Of a stretch of DNA of 64,000 nt, positions 2,655 to 14,600 are shown one piece after another. Made by a program: the position numbers and the translations under genes. Below the pieces are notes generated by a model. It saw only the letters and a program-made list of their open reading frames with translations, was not told the origin of the DNA and made no database searches. Positions within the stretch are counted from its first letter, which is position 1, and each line of letters begins with the position of its first letter. Source of the stretch: Escherichia coli (GTDB taxonomy: Bacteria; Pseudomonadota; Gammaproteobacteria; Enterobacterales; Enterobacteriaceae); the NCBI RefSeq assembly GCF_024223415.1, contig NZ_CP100500.1; one strand, written 5' to 3'.

Positions 2655-3149
2655 ATGAGCATGGTCGCAAGACCGGAAGCCGCCCCTGCACGGGACGATA
2701 TCCCCGACACCGACGACGGCGACGCCACCATCACCGCCGGGGCATTCTGGCCGGAGATTGTGCTGCGGGAGCTGCGCCTTGCAGTACGCCTGCCGGGCCG
2801 CATCACCTCCACACGTCTGGCGCACGTTGCCACGGGAGCCGTGGCTCACGTCACGCGGGAGCTGGAAGAGTGGCAGAAGACGCAGTCTGCCGCAGGGTTC
2901 AGCATCCTCGCAGAAGTGCCTGCCGCCACCATCAACGGTGAGAGCGTCAACGTATGGCATTACCGCAACGCCGTCTACAGCGCCACCCGCGCCCTGATTC
3001 TGGAACGCTGGCGGGATGTGGACACCACTGATAAAGGGAACCGCCGGGCTGACGCACTGGATGAGCAGATGGAAGACTTATGGCGCGATGTGCGCTGGTC
3101 CGTGGCAGATATTCTGGGTCGCCCCCGTCTTTTTGCGGAGCTGGTGTGA
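2655..3149 (+). CDS. L: head completion/stabilisation protein, P2 gpL family
   Basis: 164 aa with a GAAGGAG SD at 2641-2647. Size and position between gpM and gpX match P2 order. Confidence 0.75.
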   Translation: MSMVARPEAAPARDDIPDTDDGDATITAGAFWPEIVLRELRLAVRLPGRITSTRLAHVATGAVAHVTRELEEWQKTQSAAGFSILAEVPAATINGESVNVWHYRNAVYSATRALILERWRDVDTTDKGNRRADALDEQMEDLWRDVRWSVADILGRPRLFAELV

Positions 3150-3346
3150 TGAAAGTGAGGGCACTCCAGGGGGATACCGTCGATTTACTCTGTTTCCGGC
3201 ACTACGGCACCACGCAGGGGGTGACCGCACAGGTACTTGATGCCAATCCCGGGCTCTGCCGCCAGGTAATTCTGGAAGCGGGACAGGAGGTGGAGATGCC
3301 GGAGCCGGAAAAGAAACAGCAACGCGAAAAGGTAAAGCTATGGTGA
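3149..3346 (+). CDS. X: tail protein X, P2 gpX family
   Basis: MKVRALQGDTVDLLCFRHYGTTQGVTAQVLDANPGL resembles P2 gpX (MKTFALQGDTLDAICVRYYGRTEGVVETVLAANPGL). The ATG overlaps the gpL stop; the longer ORF-track start is rejected. Confidence 0.8.
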   Translation: MKVRALQGDTVDLLCFRHYGTTQGVTAQVLDANPGLCRQVILEAGQEVEMPEPEKKQQREKVKLW

Positions 3347-3630
3347 CGGGATTTTTTCAGCGCGTCAGTGACTGGATCACCTTCTGGGCGTCAGTGACGG
3401 CAACAACCATTGGTGTTATGACCATCAGCGAAAAAATTGCGCTGGCCGGGCTGCTTCTGGGGTCACTTTCCGCCATCCATGCCTGGTGCCACCGCAGGCG
3501 TACGGAGCAGGCAATGAAGCGCCGCAATGACCTTATCGCCCGCATCCTGGCACGTTCAGAAAACCGCGAGCTTCACGACGGTGAGAGACGGGCACTGGAC
3601 AGCGTGAGACAGGACGGAGAAGAGCGGTGA
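3340..3630 (+). CDS. holin (P2 gpY position)
   Basis: 96 aa with two hydrophobic segments (ITFWASVTATTIGVMTI, IALAGLLLGSLSAIHAW) and a charged C-terminus. Lies immediately upstream of, and overlapping, the endolysin. Confidence 0.6.
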   Translation: MVTGFFQRVSDWITFWASVTATTIGVMTISEKIALAGLLLGSLSAIHAWCHRRRTEQAMKRRNDLIARILARSENRELHDGERRALDSVRQDGEER

Positions 3631-4172
3631 AACTGCCGGTAAAACGTTATGCGGTGGCGGCCATTGTGGCGCTGGGCGTCTCCATGGCACCCGGTGAACT
3701 GAGAACCTCACGGGAAGCACAGATAAAAATCGCCACCCGGGAAGAGTGCCGGGCGACACCGTACCGTGATATTGCAGGAGTAATGACCGTGGGATGTGGT
3801 TCAACAGGGGGCGTGGAGAACCGGGTTTACGGAGAAAAGGAGGTGGCCCGCCGCTGGGTGAATGACCTGCGGCACGCGGAAAACTGTATCAACCAGAACT
3901 TCAGCGGTGCCGCCATGCCCCAGTCCGCCTTTGAGGCGATGACCGACGCGGCGTTCAACGTCGGCTGTACCGGCCTGATGTGGTACCGGGACAGGAGCGG
4001 CAACCGGCAGCGCACCACCATCTGGAAGCACGCACAGGCGCACCGCTGGGTGGCGATGTGCGGGAGACTGACCGATTTTGTCAACAGTGGCGGACGCCGC
4101 TCACAGGGGCTGGTTAACCGCCGGGAGGAGTTCAGACAGTGGTGTCTTCGCGACACGGGAGGCAGCACATGA
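3627..4172 (+). CDS. endolysin, GH24 (T4/P21-type) lysozyme with N-terminal signal-anchor-release-like segment
   Basis: GTG start overlaps the holin stop. The E-8x-D-5x-T catalytic spacing is visible in REECRATPYRDIAGVMT. The N-terminal weakly hydrophobic YAVAAIVALGVSMAPG is like SAR endolysins. Confidence 0.8.
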   Translation: MKLPVKRYAVAAIVALGVSMAPGELRTSREAQIKIATREECRATPYRDIAGVMTVGCGSTGGVENRVYGEKEVARRWVNDLRHAENCINQNFSGAAMPQSAFEAMTDAAFNVGCTGLMWYRDRSGNRQRTTIWKHAQAHRWVAMCGRLTDFVNSGGRRSQGLVNRREEFRQWCLRDTGGST

Positions 4173-4576
4173 GACCGGTTTACGCCGTGATTGTTGCCCT
4201 CATGGTGACCACCCTGACGGCGGCGGCCATGTGGCAGTCATACCGGCTGGGGCGTGCCGGTGAGGCACGTGACGCCGCAGAGCAGCAGCTGGGCGAATAC
4301 AGCCGGGCGCTGCGTGAGTCCTCCGCCGTTATCAGCGATGCCTCCGCCGTACTGCATGAGGTGATGACGCAGCGACAGAAAAGGGCACAGGAAGGAGAAG
4401 TCAGACGTGAACAGCTTCGCGAAATTGCTGCGACGGATGAGTGCGCCGGCACTCTTCCTGACCACCGTTTTACTGACCGGCTGCGCGAACACACGGAACG
4501 CGCCACTGCCCGCGCCCTCCTTCCGGTTCATTCCGGCGGGACTGACGACGGGAACACGGCCCCCGCCCTTCCCTGA
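4169..4576 (+). CDS. i-spanin (P2 LysB / Rz-like)
   Basis: GGGAGG SD; the ATG overlaps the endolysin stop. One N-terminal TM (VYAVIVALMVTTLTAAAMW) followed by a charged coiled-coil-like region. Confidence 0.65.
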   Translation: MRPVYAVIVALMVTTLTAAAMWQSYRLGRAGEARDAAEQQLGEYSRALRESSAVISDASAVLHEVMTQRQKRAQEGEVRREQLREIAATDECAGTLPDHRFTDRLREHTERATARALLPVHSGGTDDGNTAPALP

Positions 4577-4721
4577 ACACCCCACCTGGGGAAATATCGG
4601 GATATGGAGCGACAGCCTCCTGGATGCACTGGAAACCTGCAACGCAGACAAACGGGCCATTGAGGCGATGGAGCGCCGGAGACTCAACCGACAGAACGGA
4701 GAGGCGCATGCTGAAAAGTAA
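4407..4721 (+). CDS. o-spanin lipoprotein (P2 LysC / Rz1-like), overlapping the i-spanin in the +1 frame
   Basis: Signal peptide ends in the lipobox LLTGC and the mature part is proline-rich. It begins inside the i-spanin and extends past it, as in P2 lysB/lysC. An alternative start is at 4437. Confidence 0.65.
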   Translation: MNSFAKLLRRMSAPALFLTTVLLTGCANTRNAPLPAPSFRFIPAGLTTGTRPPPFPEHPTWGNIGIWSDSLLDALETCNADKRAIEAMERRRLNRQNGEAHAEK

Positions 4722-5172
4722 ATCCCTGAGCACACACATGAGTACAGCGTGCCGGTGGTGCAGGGCCAACCCGGAAAAGTTCACCGTGTTCATTGAACGT
4801 GGCGGGATAGAGACCACCGGCGAGACGCCGACGTTCGTGTACAACTACCGGCTGGTGATGTTCGTGATGGACTACACGGGCGATCTGGACAACCTGACGC
4901 TTCCACTGATTGTCTGGCTGGCAGAGAACCAGCCGCAGTTGCTGCTTAATCCTGAGCGCAACAACGATATTCAGTTCACGGCGGCCATTAACGACGACGA
5001 CAGCGCGGACGTGCTGTTTGAGCTGCCGTTACGTGAACGCGTGCGCGTCACCCGCAGGGATGACGGCACCCTCATGACAGAACATCTACCGGAGCCGAAA
5101 TCACGCATCCCGCAGGACGGCGACTGGTCACACATTCTGGAGGATGTGACGTGGAACATTGTCACCGGATAA
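4708..5172 (+). CDS. R: tail completion protein, P2 gpR family
   Basis: MLKSKSL... with a GGAGAGG SD. Colinear with remembered P2 gpR (MLKPDSL..., ...WLRENQP...). 154 aa against 155 aa. Confidence 0.8.
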   Translation: MLKSKSLSTHMSTACRWCRANPEKFTVFIERGGIETTGETPTFVYNYRLVMFVMDYTGDLDNLTLPLIVWLAENQPQLLLNPERNNDIQFTAAINDDDSADVLFELPLRERVRVTRRDDGTLMTEHLPEPKSRIPQDGDWSHILEDVTWNIVTG

Positions 5173-5187
5173 CACGCGGAGAATGTT

Positions 5188-5844
5188 ATGGGGAAACTGA
5201 GATACCGTAACCTCGTTCCCGCTGAAGGAATGAGTAACATGTTTGTCAATATCCGGCTGGCAACCAGCCCGCAGGCAGTGAAGCGCATTGCCGCGCATGT
5301 GGGTAAGGAGCTGCGGCGCGTGAACCAGAGCCGGATGCGCGCCCAGAAAGCGCCGGACGGTTCGGTGTGGACACGCCGTAAACGCCGTATATCACGCCTT
5401 CAGGAGCGCATCAGCTTTATCTGGCAAAACCAGAACCGCACCCTGAAAAACTGGCATCACGGTTCAGGAAAATACGGCCAGACCATCACCGGCTGGGATG
5501 AAGACCGGAGCGGCATACGTACCTTTTACCGGAGTGATATCCTCCGTTTCCTTGAAATCAGGACACGCCGCATCAACCGTGACACCACAAAAACGGTGCC
5601 GATGTTTGCGAAGCTGCGCACGGCCCGTTATCTGAAAGTGAAGGCGGACGCATCAGGTGTGACGGTGGGCTACAGCGGCGTGGCGGCACGCATTGCCCGC
5701 GTTCACCAGTTCGGGGAGCGCGACCGGGTGGCCGCAGGGATGTATACGGATTATCCGGCCCGTGAACTTCTTGGAATAACACCGGCAGATGAACGACTTA
5801 TTCAGCGTATCATTATGGACAATATCGCGAGGGCTGTGGCATGA
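5188..5844 (+). CDS. S: tail completion protein, P2 gpS family (about 65 aa longer than P2 gpS)
   Basis: Motifs MRAQKAPDGS, MFAKLRTARYLK and IARVHQFG match the gpS pattern. An extra internal segment is present relative to P2. Confidence 0.75.
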   Translation: MGKLRYRNLVPAEGMSNMFVNIRLATSPQAVKRIAAHVGKELRRVNQSRMRAQKAPDGSVWTRRKRRISRLQERISFIWQNQNRTLKNWHHGSGKYGQTITGWDEDRSGIRTFYRSDILRFLEIRTRRINRDTTKTVPMFAKLRTARYLKVKADASGVTVGYSGVAARIARVHQFGERDRVAAGMYTDYPARELLGITPADERLIQRIIMDNIARAVA

Positions 5845-6772: not shown

Positions 6773-7669
6773 ATGCCTTCCGTTGACCTGTCACAGTTAC
6801 CGGAACCGGCCATCATCGCGCAGCCGGATTTTGAGTCCATCCTGGCAGACATTAAAACCATGATGGTGAGCTCCTTCCCGGAAGAATACCGCGCCGCCGT
6901 CACCCGTGCCCTTACTCTGGAATCCGAGCCATTGAACATCATTTCCCAGGCCATGGCCTTTCGTGAAATGCTGCTTCGCCAGCGCATCAATGAAGCCGCC
7001 CGCGCCTGCATGCTCAGCCACAGCCGGGGCAGTGACCTGGACAATCTGGCCGCCAACAACAACACCCGCCGCCTGGTCATTCATCCGGCCACTGATACCA
7101 CGGAAGCAGTGATGGAAAGCGACACATCGCTGCGTCTGCGTGCCCAGTCAGCCTGGGACGGCCTGAGTGTGGCCGGACCGTCCGGCGCGTATGAGTATTT
7201 TGCCCGGAGCGCAAGCGGTCTTGTCCGTGATGCGCGCGCCATCAGCCCGTCACCGGCCACAGTCACCGTCTCCATCCTGTCAGCAGACGGTGACGGCACC
7301 GCCGGTGAGGCGTTACTGAACACGGTGCGCACCGCCCTGAATGCCGAGAACGTGCGCCCGGTTGCCGACCGCCTGACTGTGCAGAGTGCTACCATCGTGA
7401 ACTGGGTAATGGAAGCGAAGCTGTATTTTTATCCAGGGCCGGAGTCTGAACCCATGCTTGCGGCCGCTGACGCCGCTTTCCGTGCATGGCTGGCAGACCA
7501 GGGCCGTATCGGTCAGGACGTGGCCCTGTCAGCCATCACTGCAGCGCTGCATGTTCACGGTGTCCAGCGCGTTGAGGTCATAAAACCCACGCAGAACATC
7601 ACCATCAGTGACACTCAGGCAGCCAGATGTACCACATTCAGCATCAGCGAAGGAGGACGCAATGAGTGA
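6773..7669 (+). CDS. J: baseplate wedge protein, P2 gpJ family
   Basis: 298 aa with a GAGGGAG SD. Size and position match P2 gpJ. Confidence 0.85.
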   Translation: MPSVDLSQLPEPAIIAQPDFESILADIKTMMVSSFPEEYRAAVTRALTLESEPLNIISQAMAFREMLLRQRINEAARACMLSHSRGSDLDNLAANNNTRRLVIHPATDTTEAVMESDTSLRLRAQSAWDGLSVAGPSGAYEYFARSASGLVRDARAISPSPATVTVSILSADGDGTAGEALLNTVRTALNAENVRPVADRLTVQSATIVNWVMEAKLYFYPGPESEPMLAAADAAFRAWLADQGRIGQDVALSAITAALHVHGVQRVEVIKPTQNITISDTQAARCTTFSISEGGRNE

Positions 7670-8225
7670 CAGGAAAAAAACAGACAGCGCACAGCACAGT
7701 ACATCACTGCTTCCACCGTCCGCAGGGCCATTCATGCGCGCCACAGAGGCGACAGGAGTACGCATCAGTACCATACCGGTGGACGCCGACACCCTGTGGT
7801 CGCCGGACCGCTGCCCTGCTCACCTCCTGCCCTACCTTGCATGGGCATGTTCCGTTGACAGCTGGGACCGCAACTGGCCGGAAGAGACCAGGCGACAGGT
7901 GATTCGGGACGCATGGATGATACATCGCCACAAAGGGACCATCAGTGCACTCCGCCGCATCGTTGAACCACTGGGCTACCTCATCCGTGTATCAGAATGG
8001 TGGGAGTTTGACGGCTCGCCCGGGACCTTCACCATTGAGATTGGCACACTTGAAACCGGAGTAAGTGAAGAGCTGCATGAAGAAATGGAGCGTCTGATTG
8101 CCGATGCGCGCCCCGTCAGCCGCCACCTCGTGGGGCTTAGTATCATCCAGGAAATACACGGTGCCATTTACGCCGCTGCCGCAGGTTACGACGGCGACAT
8201 CATCACCATTTACCCGGAAGACTGA
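7662..8225 (+). CDS. I: baseplate/tail fibre-attachment protein, P2 gpI family
   Basis: GAAGGAGGA SD before the ATG at 7662. Contains a LLPYLAWACSVDSWD motif typical of gpI. Overlaps the gpJ end. Confidence 0.8.
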   Translation: MSDRKKTDSAQHSTSLLPPSAGPFMRATEATGVRISTIPVDADTLWSPDRCPAHLLPYLAWACSVDSWDRNWPEETRRQVIRDAWMIHRHKGTISALRRIVEPLGYLIRVSEWWEFDGSPGTFTIEIGTLETGVSEELHEEMERLIADARPVSRHLVGLSIIQEIHGAIYAAAAGYDGDIITIYPED

Positions 8226-8228
8226 ACC

Positions 8229-10463
8229 ATGAGCACGAGAAAATTCAGAACCCTTATCACCGACATCGGGCTGGCAAAGCTGGCCGCAACAACGGCGCCT
8301 GGCGGTAGACCTGTACGCCTTACGCACATGGCTGTAGGGGACGGCAATGGAGAGCTTCGTCAGCCGCAGAAAAACCAGACATCGCTTTACAATGAGGTTT
8401 GGCGCCAGTCTGTCAACCGCGTCTTCACCGACCCGGAGAACCCGAACCGCCTCATCGCCGAACTGGTCATTCCTCCTGAAACCGGCGGATTCTGGGTGCG
8501 TGAAATTGGTGTGTTTGATGATACAGGTACAATGATTGCAGTAGGAAATACCGCTGAAAGTTACAAGCCCACCAGAGAGGAAGGTTCAGGGCGGGCGCAG
8601 ATATTCCGTGCAGTAATCACCGTCACCTCCGACGCCGTGGTGGAACTGGTCATGGACACAACAACAATTCTGCCGACCACGGACTACATTGATGAGAAAA
8701 TAGCGGAACACGCACGTTCCCGTAACCACCCTGACGCGACACTGACAGAAAAAGGATTCACCCAACTGAGCAGCGCCACAAACAGCACCTCTGAAACACT
8801 GGCCGCCACACCGAAGGCCGTCAAGGCTGCATATGACCTTGCAGCCGGTAAAGCACCCGCCAGCCACACCCACCCGTGGAATCAGATAACAGGTGTGCCA
8901 TCAGCCTCGCTGACGGCAAAAGGCACCGTACAGCTGAGCAGTGCCACAAACAGTGAGTCAGAGACTGAGGCCGCCACCCCCAAAGCGGTTAAAGCCTTAC
9001 ACGATATGGTGACGAGCAAGTATACAGGACAGGATGCAACCACCGGACGCAAAGGCATCGTACAGCTGAGCAGCGCCACAAACAGCAATTCCGAAACACT
9101 GGCGGCCACACCGAAGGCAGTAAGTGATGCACTGAGCATGGCGTTCGTGAAGCCAACAACATCCCTGGGGGAAACAGACCTGAACACTCTGGGGAGTAAG
9201 GAAGACGCGGGAGATTATTACCAGCAGAGTGACTCAGGTGCGAGAACAGACAGAAACTATCCTGTAGAGAAGGCAGGAGAGTTACGCATCCGTGTTGGTG
9301 CATGGGGATTCTGCCAGCATGAATACACGAGCTGGGATCCGCCACGAAAATTTATCAGGACAGTTACCGGAAACTTTAACGGTAACGGCCCATGGTCAGA
9401 GTGGGTGGAGGTGACAAACACAGATGCAACAACTGGACGCAAAGGCATCGTACAGCTGAGCAGCGATACAAACAGCAATTCCGAAACGCTGGCGGCCACA
9501 CCAAGAGCCGTCAAGGCTGCATATGACCTTGCAGCCGGTAAAGCACCCGCCAGCCACACCCACCCGTGGAATCAGATAACAGGTGTGCCATCAGCCTCGC
9601 TGACGGCAAAAGGCACCGTACAGCTGAGCAGTGCCACAAACAGTGAGTCAGAGACTGAGGCCGCCACCCCCAAAGCGGTTAAAGCCTTACACGATATGGT
9701 GACGAGCAAGTATACAGGACAGGATGCAACCACCGGACGCAAAGGCATCGTACAGCTAAGCAGCGCCACAAACAGCAATTCCGAAACGCTGGCGGCCACA
9801 CCAAAAGCTGTTAAAGCTGCGTATGACCTTGCCAACAGCAAAGCCTCGGCAGCCCACACTCATCGCTGGGCTCAGATCACAGACGCCCCTGTTTTTTCGT
9901 CTGTTGCCCGCGTCATCATGGGTAAACAAAGCATAAAAGATATTCTTGATTACCTTGGTTTAGGAGAAGGCTCGACGCTGCCAGTTGGCGTACCCGTTCC
10001 GTGGCCTTCGTCAAGACCACCTGAGGGGTGGTTACAGTGCAACGGTGCCGCATTCACGCGTACAAAATACCCAAAACTGGCGGTGGCCTACCCTGACCTC
10101 AGGCTACCAGATTTGCGCGGGGAATTTATTCGTGGATGGGATGACCTGCGAATGATTGACAGGGGACGCTTATTGTTATCCACACAGGAAGCAACATATA
10201 TTTGTACCGCCATACAGGCGTACCACGGCGTAGCGGGAGGTGCAGATATTCAGGCAGGGATTTCATTTGCATCACATGATAACGACATCATAAACATAAC
10301 CCCTGATCAACCCAGAACCGGTAACGGCATCCTGTACGGCACAAAACCAGTTGACAGATGGGCAATAGCCAGAGCCGGTAAGCTGGTGAGTAATGAAAAA
10401 GACAGATGGATAGCGATCAGACCGCGCAATATCGCTTTTAATTATATTGTGAGGGCAGTTTAA
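8229..10463 (+). CDS. H: tail fibre protein, P2 gpH N-terminus with a mosaic distal part
   Basis: The first ~200 aa are colinear with remembered P2 gpH (KFRT.IT..G.AKLAA.TAPG..., AELVIPPE.GGFW.RE.G..DD.GT.IAV.N.AESYKP). Six QLSSATNS.SET.AATPKAV repeats. C-terminal tail-collar-type motif PEGWLQCNGAAF...YPKLAVAYP...LPDLRGEFIRGWD. Confidence 0.9.
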   Translation: MSTRKFRTLITDIGLAKLAATTAPGGRPVRLTHMAVGDGNGELRQPQKNQTSLYNEVWRQSVNRVFTDPENPNRLIAELVIPPETGGFWVREIGVFDDTGTMIAVGNTAESYKPTREEGSGRAQIFRAVITVTSDAVVELVMDTTTILPTTDYIDEKIAEHARSRNHPDATLTEKGFTQLSSATNSTSETLAATPKAVKAAYDLAAGKAPASHTHPWNQITGVPSASLTAKGTVQLSSATNSESETEAATPKAVKALHDMVTSKYTGQDATTGRKGIVQLSSATNSNSETLAATPKAVSDALSMAFVKPTTSLGETDLNTLGSKEDAGDYYQQSDSGARTDRNYPVEKAGELRIRVGAWGFCQHEYTSWDPPRKFIRTVTGNFNGNGPWSEWVEVTNTDATTGRKGIVQLSSDTNSNSETLAATPRAVKAAYDLAAGKAPASHTHPWNQITGVPSASLTAKGTVQLSSATNSESETEAATPKAVKALHDMVTSKYTGQDATTGRKGIVQLSSATNSNSETLAATPKAVKAAYDLANSKASAAHTHRWAQITDAPVFSSVARVIMGKQSIKDILDYLGLGEGSTLPVGVPVPWPSSRPPEGWLQCNGAAFTRTKYPKLAVAYPDLRLPDLRGEFIRGWDDLRMIDRGRLLLSTQEATYICTAIQAYHGVAGGADIQAGISFASHDNDIINITPDQPRTGNGILYGTKPVDRWAIARAGKLVSNEKDRWIAIRPRNIAFNYIVRAV
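8817..9105. repeat. ~290-bp direct repeat inside gpH, copy 1
   Basis: Near-identical by eye to 9507-9795 (offset 690 bp), e.g. tcaaggctgcatatgaccttgcagccggtaaagcacccgccagccacacc occurs at 8821 and 9511. Confidence 0.85.
9507..9795. repeat. ~290-bp direct repeat inside gpH, copy 2
   Basis: See copy 1. The two copies bracket 9106-9506, which encodes a knob-like domain. Confidence 0.85.
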
Positions 10464-11074
10464 TGAGTAACACTGCAGTTCTGGATGAAAACGGTATCGC
10501 CACTTTCGCAGGCGATATCACTGTATATCACTATGATGAGGAAACCCGGGAATACACCTCATCCTCTGTGGAGTATCTGGCCCTGGGGGTGGGTACCCCG
10601 GCACATTCATGCGCCGATGCCCCGCCAGAGGCAATGCCGGGTTACGTGATTTGCCGGACGTCCACGCTGGACGGGTGGGAGTATGTCCCCGATCATCGTG
10701 GAGAGACGGTATACAGCACAGAGAACGGTAATCCGGTCCAGATTACCCAACCAGGTGACTACCCGGAAGGGACAACGACAAAACAGCCTGCCACACCATG
10801 GGATACCTGGAACGGTGAGGCGTGGGTAACCGATACAGAACGGCAGCAAGCCGAAGAGCTGGAGGTTGCCAGACAGCAACGCAAGGAACGGGTGGATCAG
10901 GCGATGAAGTCCATCGACCTCATCAACCTTAAGTTGCGGGCAGGTCGCAGTCTGACACCAGAAGAAACGGCAAAACTGAATGCCGTGCTGGATTATATCG
11001 ACGAGCTGAACGCACTGGATATCAGCACGGAGCCTGAAATAAGCTGGCCGGAAACACCACCAGAAATGGAATGA
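10463..11074 (+). CDS. G: tail fibre assembly chaperone (P2 gpG / Tfa family)
   Basis: TAATG overlap with the gpH stop. 203 aa with the typical Tfa features (W.W....W......) and a C-terminal coiled-coil-like part. Confidence 0.8.
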   Translation: MSNTAVLDENGIATFAGDITVYHYDEETREYTSSSVEYLALGVGTPAHSCADAPPEAMPGYVICRTSTLDGWEYVPDHRGETVYSTENGNPVQITQPGDYPEGTTTKQPATPWDTWNGEAWVTDTERQQAEELEVARQQRKERVDQAMKSIDLINLKLRAGRSLTPEETAKLNAVLDYIDELNALDISTEPEISWPETPPEME

Positions 11075-11117
11075 GCGGGGAAAAGGAACGGGCATTCATA
11101 AATAATTCATCATGCAG

Positions 11118-11137
11118 GTGCCGCAAGAATGCGGCAC
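11118..11137. terminator. hairpin between the convergent gpG and gpU genes
   Basis: GTGCCGCA-agaa-TGCGGCAC, a perfect 8-bp stem, lies between two convergent stop codons (11074 and 11145). There is no strong T-run. Confidence 0.45.
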
Positions 11138-11144
11138 ATTACCT

Positions 11145-11633
11145 TCACATCAGATCATTTACGCCGCTTACTGTGGTATTCCAGACCGAACTTAACTTCC
11201 CTTTCATTCCCGAAAGCATATCAGACACCGGTGACGAGGCCATACTCTCCCGCAAATCCTCATCACAGCGTTCCAGACTGACAGTGAACTCAATTTTTTT
11301 GGCCTTACCGTGGCGGTCAAGTTCGCTTCGCGTTGTGCGGACAGCCGTTATCACATACATGCCGTATATCTGCCCCACACCGTCAATCAGCGGCCATGGG
11401 CGACCAGTGTAAGCCTGCGTCGTTAAAAGGCTGAGGGAAACCTCACCGCCGGTAATTTCGGGATAAAGCACACCGGACAACGTGATCTGGTCGTCACCCG
11501 CCCCGATATACTGCCAGCTGGCCGAACGATTGATGCGTTCATTTTTAACGTGGCGCCAGGTTTTATTATGTTGCAGTTGTTGATGAGGCAGCGTACGCAA
11601 CTCAAAAACAAACATGCCGTAAATCATCATCAT
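11145..11633 (-). CDS. U: tail protein, P2 gpU family
   Basis: FVFELRTLPHQQL...WRHVKNERI...ITLSGVLYPEITGG...GRPWPLIDGVGQIYGMYVI is colinear with remembered P2 gpU. Confidence 0.85.
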   Translation of the reverse strand: MMMIYGMFVFELRTLPHQQLQHNKTWRHVKNERINRSASWQYIGAGDDQITLSGVLYPEITGGEVSLSLLTTQAYTGRPWPLIDGVGQIYGMYVITAVRTTRSELDRHGKAKKIEFTVSLERCDEDLRESMASSPVSDMLSGMKGKLSSVWNTTVSGVNDLM

Positions 11634-11644
11634 GCGAGGTACTC

Positions 11645-14600
11645 CTAATCTCTGTCACGGAAACTACCGACTGTCTGGCGGATACGGCGTTCCATTTCCG
11701 CACGGACGGCATCACCCACCATTTTTGCCAGTTCGCGCGGGTTTTGCGTGTGAACATCATGCAGGTGAATATGCAGTTCGCCAGTTAATCCCCATGGTGC
11801 CGCCTCACTCTGGCGCGGTCGGGGCGATGCGGGGGATATGGGCTGGCGCACAGCCTCAACCACCGGACGGGATGTTGCCGCCATCACTGGTGTCATTAGC
11901 GGGGAGAACGTCGGCATGACATCGTGAGTCATAACCGGTTTGATCACCGGCGGAACCACTGGCGTAATATTACCGGACAGTACCGGACGGACGACCGGAG
12001 GAATAACCGGCACATTATTCACGGACACCACCGGCTTCACGACCGGCGACACGTTCGCCGTGGTGGATATCAGCGGCGAAACACTGACAGGCGGTGGCGC
12101 TGGCAGCGGTGGCAACGAAGGCACACTGACCGACGGCACCTGCGGCAGTCTGACAGGTGGCTCACTGACACTACCCGGTAACAGGGAAGCTGCGCGGTTA
12201 AAGCGTTCCTCCTTCCACTCACCACGAACGGCCAGCGCTTCCGGCAGGTTTTTAAAGATAATATCGCCGGGACCAGCGCGTTTTTTCGCCTGTTTCGCCT
12301 CATCCAGCAGACCACCGGTGTTATCGACGATTTTGTTCAGGCGGCGCATAGTGCCGGTATTCTCCCCCGTCAGGGGTGGTTGCCCCCCTTTGGGTTTTTC
12401 GCCGTATTTTTTATCCTCGTCCTTTTTCGGCGGATTAATGACGTTAACATCCGCCAGAAGCATGGCAGCTTTCTCGTTCAGCAACTCCTTCTGTTTTAGT
12501 TCTTCCGCTTTTTTCCGGGCGCGCTCAACCGCTGACGGAATCAGCCCGAGTTTTTCCAGCACCCGGGTTAATGAGTCAATCAGCAGCGTAACCGGACCGG
12601 TCACCAGATTGCTGATAAACTCCCCGACCTTCTGCCCGAACGTCCGCCCGGCTTCCGTGCACTTGTCCAGCTCATCCTTTGTTGTGCTTACCGGCGCGAA
12701 CAAATCCACGAACCACTGCCACACACGCCCGATTGTCTGCCCGACATACTCAAACAATGGTCCCAGTGGTGCCACAGCCTCGCGCAGTGGCGTAAGCCCC
12801 TGCCACAGGCCGGACAAGAACCCGCCCACGACAGCCTTCAGCTGGTCCCAGTGCCGCCAGATAAGCACTGCCGCACCGACCAGTGTCGCCACCACAAGGC
12901 CCACCGGACTTAACAGAAAACCCAGCGCCCCGCCAAGTGCGCCCACCGCACCACTCACCATCCCCCACAGTGCGGGCAGACCTGACAGTCTGAGCGCCAG
13001 TATTCCGATACCGCGCCCCAGTGAAATCAGTGCGCCGCCAGGTGAAGTGAACGCAGCCAGCAGACCACCACGCAGCGCGCCAAGTCCCGCCTGCACACCA
13101 CGAAGCCGCCCCGCAACTACGCCCAGCAGTGCAGCAAACCGTCCGGCACCGGAGGTGATACCGACAAACAGCACGCGCCAGCCACCGATACCGCCCAGCG
13201 GACCACCGAGTACGCCGCGCAGCTGCGTCAGTAACGGCAGCGCACGACCGAGGCCGGATGTGCCGGTCAGCAGGGCAAACCCAAGACGCAGTTTTGCCAG
13301 CGGCCCCATCAACACACCAGTGGCAAGTGACAGCGCCCCCATGGCCGCAACCGCAGCCAGCAGTACACCACCGGCAATCAGCAGTTGTTTTGTCAGTTCA
13401 GGGTGCGCCTGAGCCAGCGCGGTGACTTTCGCAATAACCCGGGTGAACGACTGCGTGACAGAACGCAGCGGCCCGTCAACGAGGTCAGCGATACGGATAC
13501 GCAGTCCTTCCCATGCGCTGTTCAGTGATTTCAGGTCACCGTCCAGGTTATCAACCATAACACGGGCAGTCTGATTAAGTTCCCCGGTGGCCAGTTCAAT
13601 CTCCTGCGTAAGACGGGGAAGATTATTTTCCCCCGCCGCAGTGACAAGATTCATCAGGGAAACATAGGACTCCTGCCCGGCAATAGCCCTGAAAAAGGAG
13701 ACCTGCGCGGCATTACCGTATTTTCGGGTGGCCTGGTACAGCTCATTCAGGATATTTTCCATCCGGCGCATGTTCCCGTAAGCATCCTGCGTCTCCACGC
13801 CAAGCTCTTTCAGTGCCATTGCAGCGGCCTTCGGCGGATCAACCAGACGTGACAGACTGGCACGCAGCGCCGTACCTGCATCACTTCCACGGATCCCCAC
13901 ACTGCCAAGGACACCCGTCATGGCTGCCGCCTGTTCAAGGGACAGGCCAAGTGAAGCTGCAACCGGCCCCGTGTACTTCATGGTTTCACCCAGCGAACGG
14001 AGATCCGTATTGGTTCGTGTGAAGGTGGCGGCCAGCGTGTCACCCACGCGATCCATCTGGTCAGCGGACAGACCAAACTGTGTGAGGATATTCGAACTGA
14101 TATCGGCAGTCTGTCCCAGGTCCATCCCTGCAGCCATTGCCAGATCAAGCACGCCGGGTAGCGCCGCCTGTATGGCCTGTGGTGTGAAGCTGGCCATGGC
14201 AAGGAACGCCTGACCGCTGGCAGCATCACCGGCGGTAAACTGCGTTTCAGAGCCCAGCTTAATGGCCTGTTCGCGCAGCGCCTTAAACTGCGGACTGTTT
14301 TTGTCAATACGGGTCAGCGCCTGGACGCGCGACATCTCCTTACCAAAACTGACCGCCGGTTGCAGGAAACGTCCGGCCGCATAGCCGCCTGCCGCCGCCG
14401 TACCAACCGCCGTAAGTCCGACCGTTTTAAGTTTTCCCGCCGTCTCCTGAGCACGGGAATATTGCTGGCGTGCCTGCGTGACACGTGCCAGCGCCTGCCG
14501 TTCGCGTTCCAGCTGGTCGTTGTATTGCTGTGTTCGCCGTATGGCCTGTTGAATGGTGTTGTCACTGCCGGAAAGCGCAATACCGTGGCGCCGCAGCTCA

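Follow-up and report, generated by a model that had tools for sequence, protein, structure and literature searches.

A tail fibre gene of a P2-family prophage of Escherichia coli with an internal pyocin-type knob in a repetitive shaft

How does a globular domain come to stand in the middle of a tail fibre, and can recombination remove it in a way that alters the host range? This question is raised by a tail fibre gene of the P2 gpH type in a stretch of 64,000 nucleotides (nt) of Escherichia coli DNA (contig NZ_CP100500.1 of assembly GCF_024223415.1), which is here referred to as the window. An original prediction, made from the sequence of the window, had viewed the encoded protein of 744 amino acids (aa) as two fibre ends fused in frame, with a former C-terminal receptor-binding tip now lying internally between near-perfect direct repeats, and had suggested that recombination between these repeats would delete the internal tip and thus toggle the host range. 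The follow-up analysis confirms a globular internal domain (aa 299-398) that is bracketed by near-perfect repeats in a P2-like fibre. The segment is, however, a pyocin-type knob, and the gene is probably best described as a P2-family prophage fibre of the gpH type with a modular shaft and a standard mid-fibre knob, the repeat array of which is reshaped by general homologous recombination. In itself, it is an ordinary prophage tail fibre gene that had been annotated before.

The identification of the internal 100-aa segment as a pyocin-type knob, a common mid-fibre module, is not obvious from routine searches. Pfam, NCBIfam and PDB sequence searches with the knob gave no useful match, and a word-indexed homologue search returned just five near-identical fragments. 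PHROG fibre families matched the segment at internal profile positions (for example 379-472 of 1210), and an identical knob fragment carries the NCBI name 'pyocin knob domain-containing protein', the presumed source of which is a CDD model. The identification of the knob needed an exhaustive search of representative sequences together with a structure model. The former, a phmmer search of 1.84 billion representatives, yielded 257 proteins at E<=1e-3; the best 153 of these were re-scanned, and position statistics were calculated for the 142 homologues starting with a methionine. In the latter set, the knob region has a median relative midpoint of 0.53 and is followed by 131, 185 and 291 residues (quartiles), with fewer than 30 residues in only two cases. 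Two to five knob copies were present in 47 of the re-scanned proteins, with a median of 180 residues following the last copy. In a Pfam scan of ten homologues, both the N-termini (PF12571, PF08400) and the distal parts varied, the latter comprising collagen repeats, Gp53-like_C, Phage_tail_C_2 and Gp34_trimer. Since the knob lies mid-protein in nearly all homologues (about 140 of 142), it is no former C-terminal tip. The notion of two fused fibre ends thus fails, as the segment turns out to be what the original prediction had itself named as its counter-case, namely a common domain found mid-fibre in many phages, and one that often occurs in tandem.

Structure prediction, which had been proposed as a check on the internal segment, points in the same direction. 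An AlphaFold2 model based on a 41-sequence alignment (A2) reached a pLDDT of 92.5 and predicts a small antiparallel β-sheet with five to six strands and loops that cover it; this fold can be superimposed on Knob1 and Knob2 of the R1 and R2 pyocin fibres. When this model was compared with the PDB using Foldseek, the R2 and R1 pyocin fibres and the AS12 gp42 tailspike ranked first (TMq 0.67-0.70, probability 1.00), and the fold also matches internal knob domains of T4 gp34 and Phi11 gp45. These structural relatives largely constitute the set that Buth et al. called knob or knob-like domains (PMC6116203). As in a mid-fibre knob, the segment is located within the fibre in line with shaft segments and has a separate distal domain downstream. 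The D-LN-L..G.Y.Q signature, which had been taken as the hallmark of a tip, is real and represents the conserved core of the knob family: in A2, the residues L20, N21, T22, L23, G24, Y32, Q34, Y46, P47, G52, L54, R79, W91 and W94 are nearly invariant. The 25 E. coli genomes with this knob hardly differ in its sequence (99.7% invariant). A diverged copy of the knob core (80-84% over ~116 nt, for example NZ_CP075697.1, 883322-883437; H53-H65) is present in thirteen further E. coli genomes. These diverged cores sit in prophage fibre genes of other annotation ('phage tail-collar fiber domain-containing protein', 'prophage tail fiber N-terminal domain-containing protein') or in unannotated DNA.

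The knob is embedded in a shaft of repeated modules. The fibre contains six copies of the motif G.[TV]QLSS.TNS.SET.AATP[KR]AV, three before and three after the knob (Table 1). For a comparison of alleles, modules were defined as R (the 23-aa Phage_fiber_2 core), 'a' (a 33-aa linker with an HxH motif), 'b' (a 21-aa linker) and KNOB, so that the window allele is parsed as N-[R a R b R]-KNOB-[R a R b R a]-TIP. Within this arrangement, a repeat search, a dot plot and a position-by-position comparison agree on a direct repeat of 297 nt whose copies start 690 nt apart. The near-perfect repeats initially seen at 8817-9105 and 9507-9795 are identical at 287 of 289 positions, and the block extends further to 9113 and 9803, respectively. 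Three mismatches separate the copies (9068, 9098 and 9113), and the spanning repeat motifs are identical in the protein. Homology of lower grade continues 5' of the repeat back to 8751 (344/363). A repeat of this length (297 nt) and identity (99%) cannot reasonably be ascribed to chance. It exists because an [a-R-b-R] block stands both upstream and downstream of the knob; the [R b R] block on either side of the knob is what makes the window allele distinctive. Its likely origin can be read from a 756-aa architecture, R a R b R-KNOB-R a R a R a, in which a change of one distal 'a' with its partner repeat to 'b' gives exactly 744 aa. Most likely, a recent intragenic gene conversion or an unequal exchange within the array created the 297-nt repeat.

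An artefactual duplication in the assembly, which had been considered from the outset, is not borne out for the 744-aa allele. Full-length copies of the 2235-nt gene (99.7-99.8% identity, 100% coverage) were found in 22 records of complete E. coli genomes, which include re-deposits of one 5,067,659-bp chromosome, and hundreds of contigs encode 744-aa proteins, with P0200 alone recorded on 444. Hence, the duplication is a genuine property of the gene.

What, then, would recombination between the two copies produce? As the offset of 690 nt equals 230 codons, a crossover would be in frame and give a 514-aa product. For the corresponding synthetic deletion product of 1545 nt, no place with at least 80% coverage was found in 5,426 complete E. 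coli genomes, and an exact look-up of the 514-aa protein gave no match, although a single substitution would hide one. A 514-aa allele was also absent from the best 120 of 7,989 database matches, which were ranked by a summed score that favours longer alleles and could miss it. The bridging DNA pattern had 0 matches in IMG/VR, where its 5' anchor is present on just three contigs, so that this search had no power; taken together, the searches for the deletion product were of limited power. With respect to regulated switching, no inverted-repeat pairs were detected in 7500-11500, the prophage annotation contains no invertase or reverse transcriptase, and a scan of 7500-11700 for promoters and terminators gave nothing above shuffled expectation. 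Switching via an invertible segment or a diversity-generating retroelement (DGR) was rejected on these grounds. Moreover, a deletion is irreversible within a single genome and therefore no toggle. The locus bears no sign of a programmed toggle, and its variation would represent population-level polymorphism generated by general recombination.

Such polymorphism is indeed evident from alleles in complete genomes that share the N-terminus and the tip (tip 98.9-99.8% identical). An allele of 756 aa (loci L001 and L005) has the architecture N-[R a R a R b R]-KNOB-[R a R a]-TIP. The same N-[R a R a R b R]-KNOB portion is followed by three distal 'R a' units and the tip in an 812-aa allele (L003, L006), and by four such units and the tip in an 868-aa allele (L004). 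An allele of 626 aa in the complete genome of strain SCU-115 (L002) is knob-less and reads N-[R a R b R a R a R a]-TIP. The 120 database proteins with the best scores include knob-containing versions of 744, 756, 800, 812 and 856 aa, to which the 868 aa from a complete genome are added, and knob-less versions of 614, 626, 670 and 682 aa. Several knob-containing and knob-less lengths form pairs exactly 130 aa apart, which corresponds to the knob plus one R. How far a repeat array can expand is illustrated by a further protein with the same N-terminus (L007; strain CS5L, 3001-5706), a knob-less fibre of 901 aa whose long shaft consists of repeats only (about ten Phage_fiber_2 units) and which ends in a collar-type tip of another kind.

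The junctions of the knob-less alleles reveal how the knob may be lost. In the allele from strain SCU-115, the junction repeat is a hybrid, the 5' part being that of the pre-knob repeat (GCGCC) and the 3' part together with the downstream flank that of the post-knob repeat (CCAAGAGCCGTC...). Compared with the window gene, a 614-aa allele (L009) lacks exactly 390 nt, and its junction is a hybrid of the same type. The natural knob losses are 390-nt deletions via repeats of 69-90 nt and ~89% identity that directly flank the knob. To judge from these junctions, knob loss by homologous recombination does occur in nature. The expectation that recombination can delete the internal domain was thus right in principle, as knob-less alleles with the same N-terminus and tip and with hybrid junctions exist; the route was not the predicted one, since the 690-bp product did not turn up in the genomes and proteins searched and the losses amount to 390 nt. 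Three 614-aa alleles differ from each other at the junction repeat (D..R, A..R and A..K), which fits several independent events or, alternatively, later conversion. Opportunities for exchange are provided by polylysogens. Strain TUM9803 harbours the 744- and 868-aa alleles (L004 at 2.65 Mb), strain F374 the 744- and 756-aa alleles (L005 at 0.85 Mb), and the window's own genome encodes the 744-aa protein (UTJ24874.1, P0186) as well as a knob-less version of 670 aa (UTJ25409.1, P0166). With two related prophages that carry different fibre alleles in one strain, exchange between prophages is possible.

Downstream of the second shaft, the polypeptide ends in a tail-collar-type domain, as had been anticipated. 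The PF07484 collar near the C-terminus (aa 587-634) scores 49.9 bits against a gathering cut-off of 24. In searches against PDB sequences, aa 581-641 match the tip collar of T4 gp37 (2xgf, E 2.2e-12) and the short tail fibre 9cuy matches the C-terminal region (E 1.4e-10). The terminal stretch around NIAFNYIVR (aa 732-743) weakly matches the C-terminal strand of gp37 and is not significant when taken alone. The tip has 6,437 homologues at E<=1e-5; with few exceptions, the 120 listed are tail fibre proteins or fragments from E. coli, most with ~50% identity. An AlphaFold2 monomer model of aa 556-744 has an overall pLDDT of 54.8 and is confident for the collar part only (aa 631-736 are of low confidence), so that the shape of the tip remains inferred. 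The collar-type tip is likely the main receptor-binding end.

For the shaft, aa 498-556 of the distal array match the shaft of the Mu tail fibre S in the PDB sequences (5yvq/8ju3, E 1.6e-7). Each 'a' linker contains an HTH (HxH) motif within SHTHPW or AHTHRW (aa 213-215, 443-445 and 543-545; nt 8865-8873, 9555-9563 and 9855-9863). Similar HxH motifs bind iron along the axis of T4 gp37, and the motif in the 'a' linkers probably binds a metal; a buried iron ion has been reported for the R-pyocin shaft (PMC6116203). By analogy with fibres of solved structure, the protein is assumed to be a homotrimer.

The assignment of the whole gene is straightforward. Pfam recognizes PF12571, six copies of PF03406 (Phage_fiber_2, E 9e-105) and PF07484 in the 744-aa fibre, and PHROG tail fibre families match it with E values down to 1e-195. 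The gene is annotated as 'tail fiber protein' in the 22 complete genome records, and the window protein is identical to P0186 (UTJ24874.1 / WP_254539300.1). Several database fibre proteins (P0184, P0191, P0192, P0200, P0201 and P0218) bear the name 'short-chain fatty acid transporter', an annotation error that has been propagated in NCBI and UniRef. The N-terminus is of the P2 gpH type (PF12571, 169.6 bits against a gathering cut-off of 23) and nearly invariant, with two substitutions among the four alleles of alignment A1.

The neighbouring genes follow the order baseplate J - I - fibre - tail fibre assembly protein (Tfa), as in a P2-family prophage. The start of the gpI-like gene is an internal ATG at 7662 taken from the translation of its open reading frame (ORF); at homologous loci, a 564-nt coding sequence annotated as 'phage tail protein I' ends 4 nt before the fibre start. 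A 'tail fiber assembly protein' is annotated downstream at all homologous loci. The fibre stop and the Tfa start share bases (TAATG at 10461-10465), which suggests translational coupling of the fibre with its chaperone. At the homologous locus of strain DG341-1, a P2-family prophage adjoining serS is annotated, with genes for the GPO scaffold, a P2-family capsid protein, gpM, Ogr/Delta and a replication endonuclease. Similarity to sequenced phage DNA is confined to the repeat region (81-82% over 21-38% of the fibre gene). The window has an intact tape-measure ORF, the homologue of which is annotated as a pseudogene and incomplete in strains DG341-1 and 23CRST011; in strain CM2, baseplate J is interrupted by an internal stop. 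Defective prophages hence occur among the carriers of this lineage.

Table 1. Coordinates of the fibre gene, its modules and its neighbours in the window (nt positions; aa numbering refers to the fibre protein).
Feature	Position	Strand	Evidence or remark
gpI-like baseplate protein, 187 aa, directly 5' of the fibre gene	7662..8225	+	Pfam Tail_P2_I, E 1.8e-47
Tail fibre gene, P2 gpH type, 744 aa	8229..10463	+	ORF, Pfam, PHROG
N-terminal baseplate-attachment domain, aa 1-~165	8229..8723	+	PF12571 Phage_tail_fib, aa 4-151, E 6e-50
Proximal shaft array R1-a-R2-b-R3, repeats at aa 176, 232, 276	8754..9122	+	Motif, Pfam, module parsing
Copy 1 of the 297-nt near-perfect direct repeat	8817..9113	+	294/297 identical to copy 2, dot plot
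Pyocin-type knob domain, aa 299-398, single copy, mid-shaft, between R3 and R4	9123..9422	+	
Distal shaft array R4-a-R5-b-R6-a', repeats at aa 406, 462, 506	9444..9896	+	Motif, Pfam, module parsing
Copy 2 of the 297-nt near-perfect direct repeat	9507..9803	+	Repeat search family D2, dot plot
C-terminal distal domain, aa 557-744: collar aa 587-634, ~90-aa insert, terminal NIAFNYIVRAV strand	9897..10460	+	PF07484 Collar, E 3e-13
Tail fibre assembly protein (Tfa, gpG-like chaperone)	10463..11074	+	PF02413 Caudo_TAP, E 4.5e-27
Tape-measure ORF, 1115 aa	11645..14992	-	Intact

Taken together, these data can be accommodated in a simple model. The N-terminal domain would dock on the baseplate, the Phage_fiber_2 repeats joined by 'a' and 'b' linkers would form the shaft with the knob inserted between two repeats, and the collar-type tip would fold with the help of the downstream Tfa chaperone. 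As the shaft is built of DNA repeats, homologous recombination, either inside a single gene or between related prophages that share a cell, could keep yielding alleles with varied module numbers. Occasionally, the 130-aa unit of knob and one repeat may be lost via a crossover between the repeats flanking the knob. The knob itself may provide a second binding site for carbohydrates at the side of the fibre, or it may simply help the fibre to fold and stay rigid. By analogy with work on R-type pyocins, fibre length and the presence of the knob could tune adsorption. A more far-reaching version is tentative and, in our view, doubtful: the repeat array would act as an evolvable dial for length and knob, in which recurrent independent events alter the reach of the tip through O-antigen or capsule, the lateral glycan site and thereby the host range, with polylysogens as mixing vessels. 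If this were true, knob-containing and knob-less alleles should measurably differ in host range.

Several points weigh against the model of a modular fibre reshaped by recombination. Loss and gain of the knob cannot be told apart with proof from the junctions alone. Repeats of the D..R type also occur elsewhere in the arrays, and the differing junctions of the 614-aa alleles may thus reflect later conversion. Furthermore, these three alleles are known only from draft contigs of 3.9-4.6 kb, in which the assembler may have collapsed repeats, so that the knob-less class rests on the SCU-115 allele, on P0166 (5.56-Mb contig) and on a few long contigs. The origin of the 297-nt repeat by gene conversion is deduced from a comparison of architectures, and the trimeric state, metal binding and any receptor binding from homologues. 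Finally, the tip is poorly modelled (pLDDT 54.8), and its receptor-binding role rests on similarity to the collars of T4 gp37 and gp12.

How do the alternatives compare with this? A fusion of two fibre distal ends, from which RecA would delete a former C-terminal tip at the 297-nt repeats (690 bp) and so toggle the host range, could draw on genuine in-frame repeats of a length that suffices for efficient homologous recombination, on proposals that knobs bind receptors in R-type pyocins and Pseudomonas phages, and on the existence of knob-less alleles. The internal position and frequent tandem arrangement of the domain in its homologues and its structural kinship with mid-fibre knobs have largely refuted the 'fused ends' part. 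As the 514-aa product was not found in the 5,426 complete genomes, by exact look-up or among the 120 best-scoring proteins, the natural losses are 390-nt events at short flanking repeats and a deletion is irreversible within a single genome, the scenario as a whole is improbable. Even less credit can be given to a duplication that arose in the assembly of the window's genome. Fibre genes with tandem-like repeats are notoriously prone to misassembly, and some variant alleles are known only from short draft contigs; yet the same 2235-nt architecture recurs in the 22 complete genome records from different strains, hosts and countries, and 744-aa proteins on hundreds of contigs, and this explanation can practically be dismissed.

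More serious, if still on the unlikely side, is a knob without a binding role. It would function as a folding or registration node or as a stiffener of the trimeric shaft, while the presence of the knob and the number of repeats would drift almost neutrally in rarely selected prophage genes. The multi-core knob structure probably aids trimer folding according to Buth et al. (PMC6116203), knob-less alleles retain the same tip and Tfa, and some carrier prophages are decaying, as seen from the baseplate J stop of CM2 and truncated tape-measure genes. The near-invariance of the knob in the 25 genomes, in which no diversifying selection is seen in the lineage, can be read in two ways, since it may just mean recent common ancestry. 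Binding is favoured by the R-type pyocins and Migulavirinae phages, in which variation of Knob2 tracks specificity (PMC6116203, PMC12625404), and by the knob-like domain of K1F endosialidase, which binds sialic acid (PMC6116203). We still regard the modular P2-family fibre, in which the knob may be either a glycan-binding site or a rigidity node, as the probable explanation.

The locus is of use beyond its own annotation. The signature D-LN-L..G.Y.Q...YP...G.L.V marks a mid-fibre knob rather than a tip, which aids the annotation of the many fibres that carry it. The allele series with its common N-terminus and tip, varied shaft length and presence or absence of the knob could be used to test the share of knob and length in adsorption, and these roles matter for the engineering of retargeted pyocins and phages. 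The added value of the locus is confined to this tidy natural allele series and to junctions at the nucleotide level.

Among known systems, phage P2 is close in organization. The window shares with it the PF12571 N-terminus, the I-H-G gene order and a PF02413 Tfa that is probably translationally coupled to the fibre, whereas the shaft and tip of P2 gpH differ from the six Phage_fiber_2 repeats with knob and from the collar tip seen here. The collar match links the tip to T4 gp37 (2XGF), the last strand of which the terminal NIAFNYIVR weakly resembles, and also to short tail fibres (9CUY). In gp37, however, a long needle and a head are located between the collar segments in place of the ~90-aa insert, and the chaperone for T4 is gp38 or gp57A instead of Tfa. 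Programmed fibre switches such as Gin of Mu, Cin of P1 and the DGR of Bordetella phage BPP-1 also target the tail fibre gene and alter the receptor-binding protein. Unlike these, the window locus has no inverted repeats, invertase, alternative C-terminal exons, reverse transcriptase or template repeat, and the changes in its fibre would result from general homologous recombination, which is irreversible within a single genome.

For the knob, the reference systems are the R1 and R2 pyocin fibres of P. aeruginosa (PA0620; 6CL5, 6CL6, 6CT8/6CU2; Buth et al. 2018). In these fibres, Knob1 (357-439) and Knob2 (445-528) are located mid-fibre, upstream of a shaft and a lectin-like C-terminal domain (PMC6116203), and Knob2 has been proposed as a specificity determinant (PMC6116203; PMC12625404). 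The window fibre likewise carries its knob inside a P2-like contractile-tail fibre upstream of a separate, presumably binding domain. Yet the pyocins combine a tandem knob pair with helix-plus-turn rods, an iron-containing shaft and a lectin-like 'foot', while the window fibre has a single knob, Phage_fiber_2 flanks and a collar-type tip; it thus shares the knob module without being a fibre of the R-pyocin type. The pyocin knobs have been solved as structures, whereas that of the window is known from its sequence and a predicted model. The closest parallel for the allele series is found in the type 1 tailocin and RSA1-like (P2-like) fibres of the P. syringae complex, which are likewise built of modular, repeated shaft-plus-knob units and the alleles of which differ by deletions of whole repeats or single knobs; the authors propose that such deletions shape the killing spectrum (PMC12208367). 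These fibres stem from another host, have other sequences and contain up to six internal knobs, compared with one knob in a Phage_fiber_2 array here. What distinguishes the E. coli locus from them is that its recombination junctions can be read at the level of single nucleotides.

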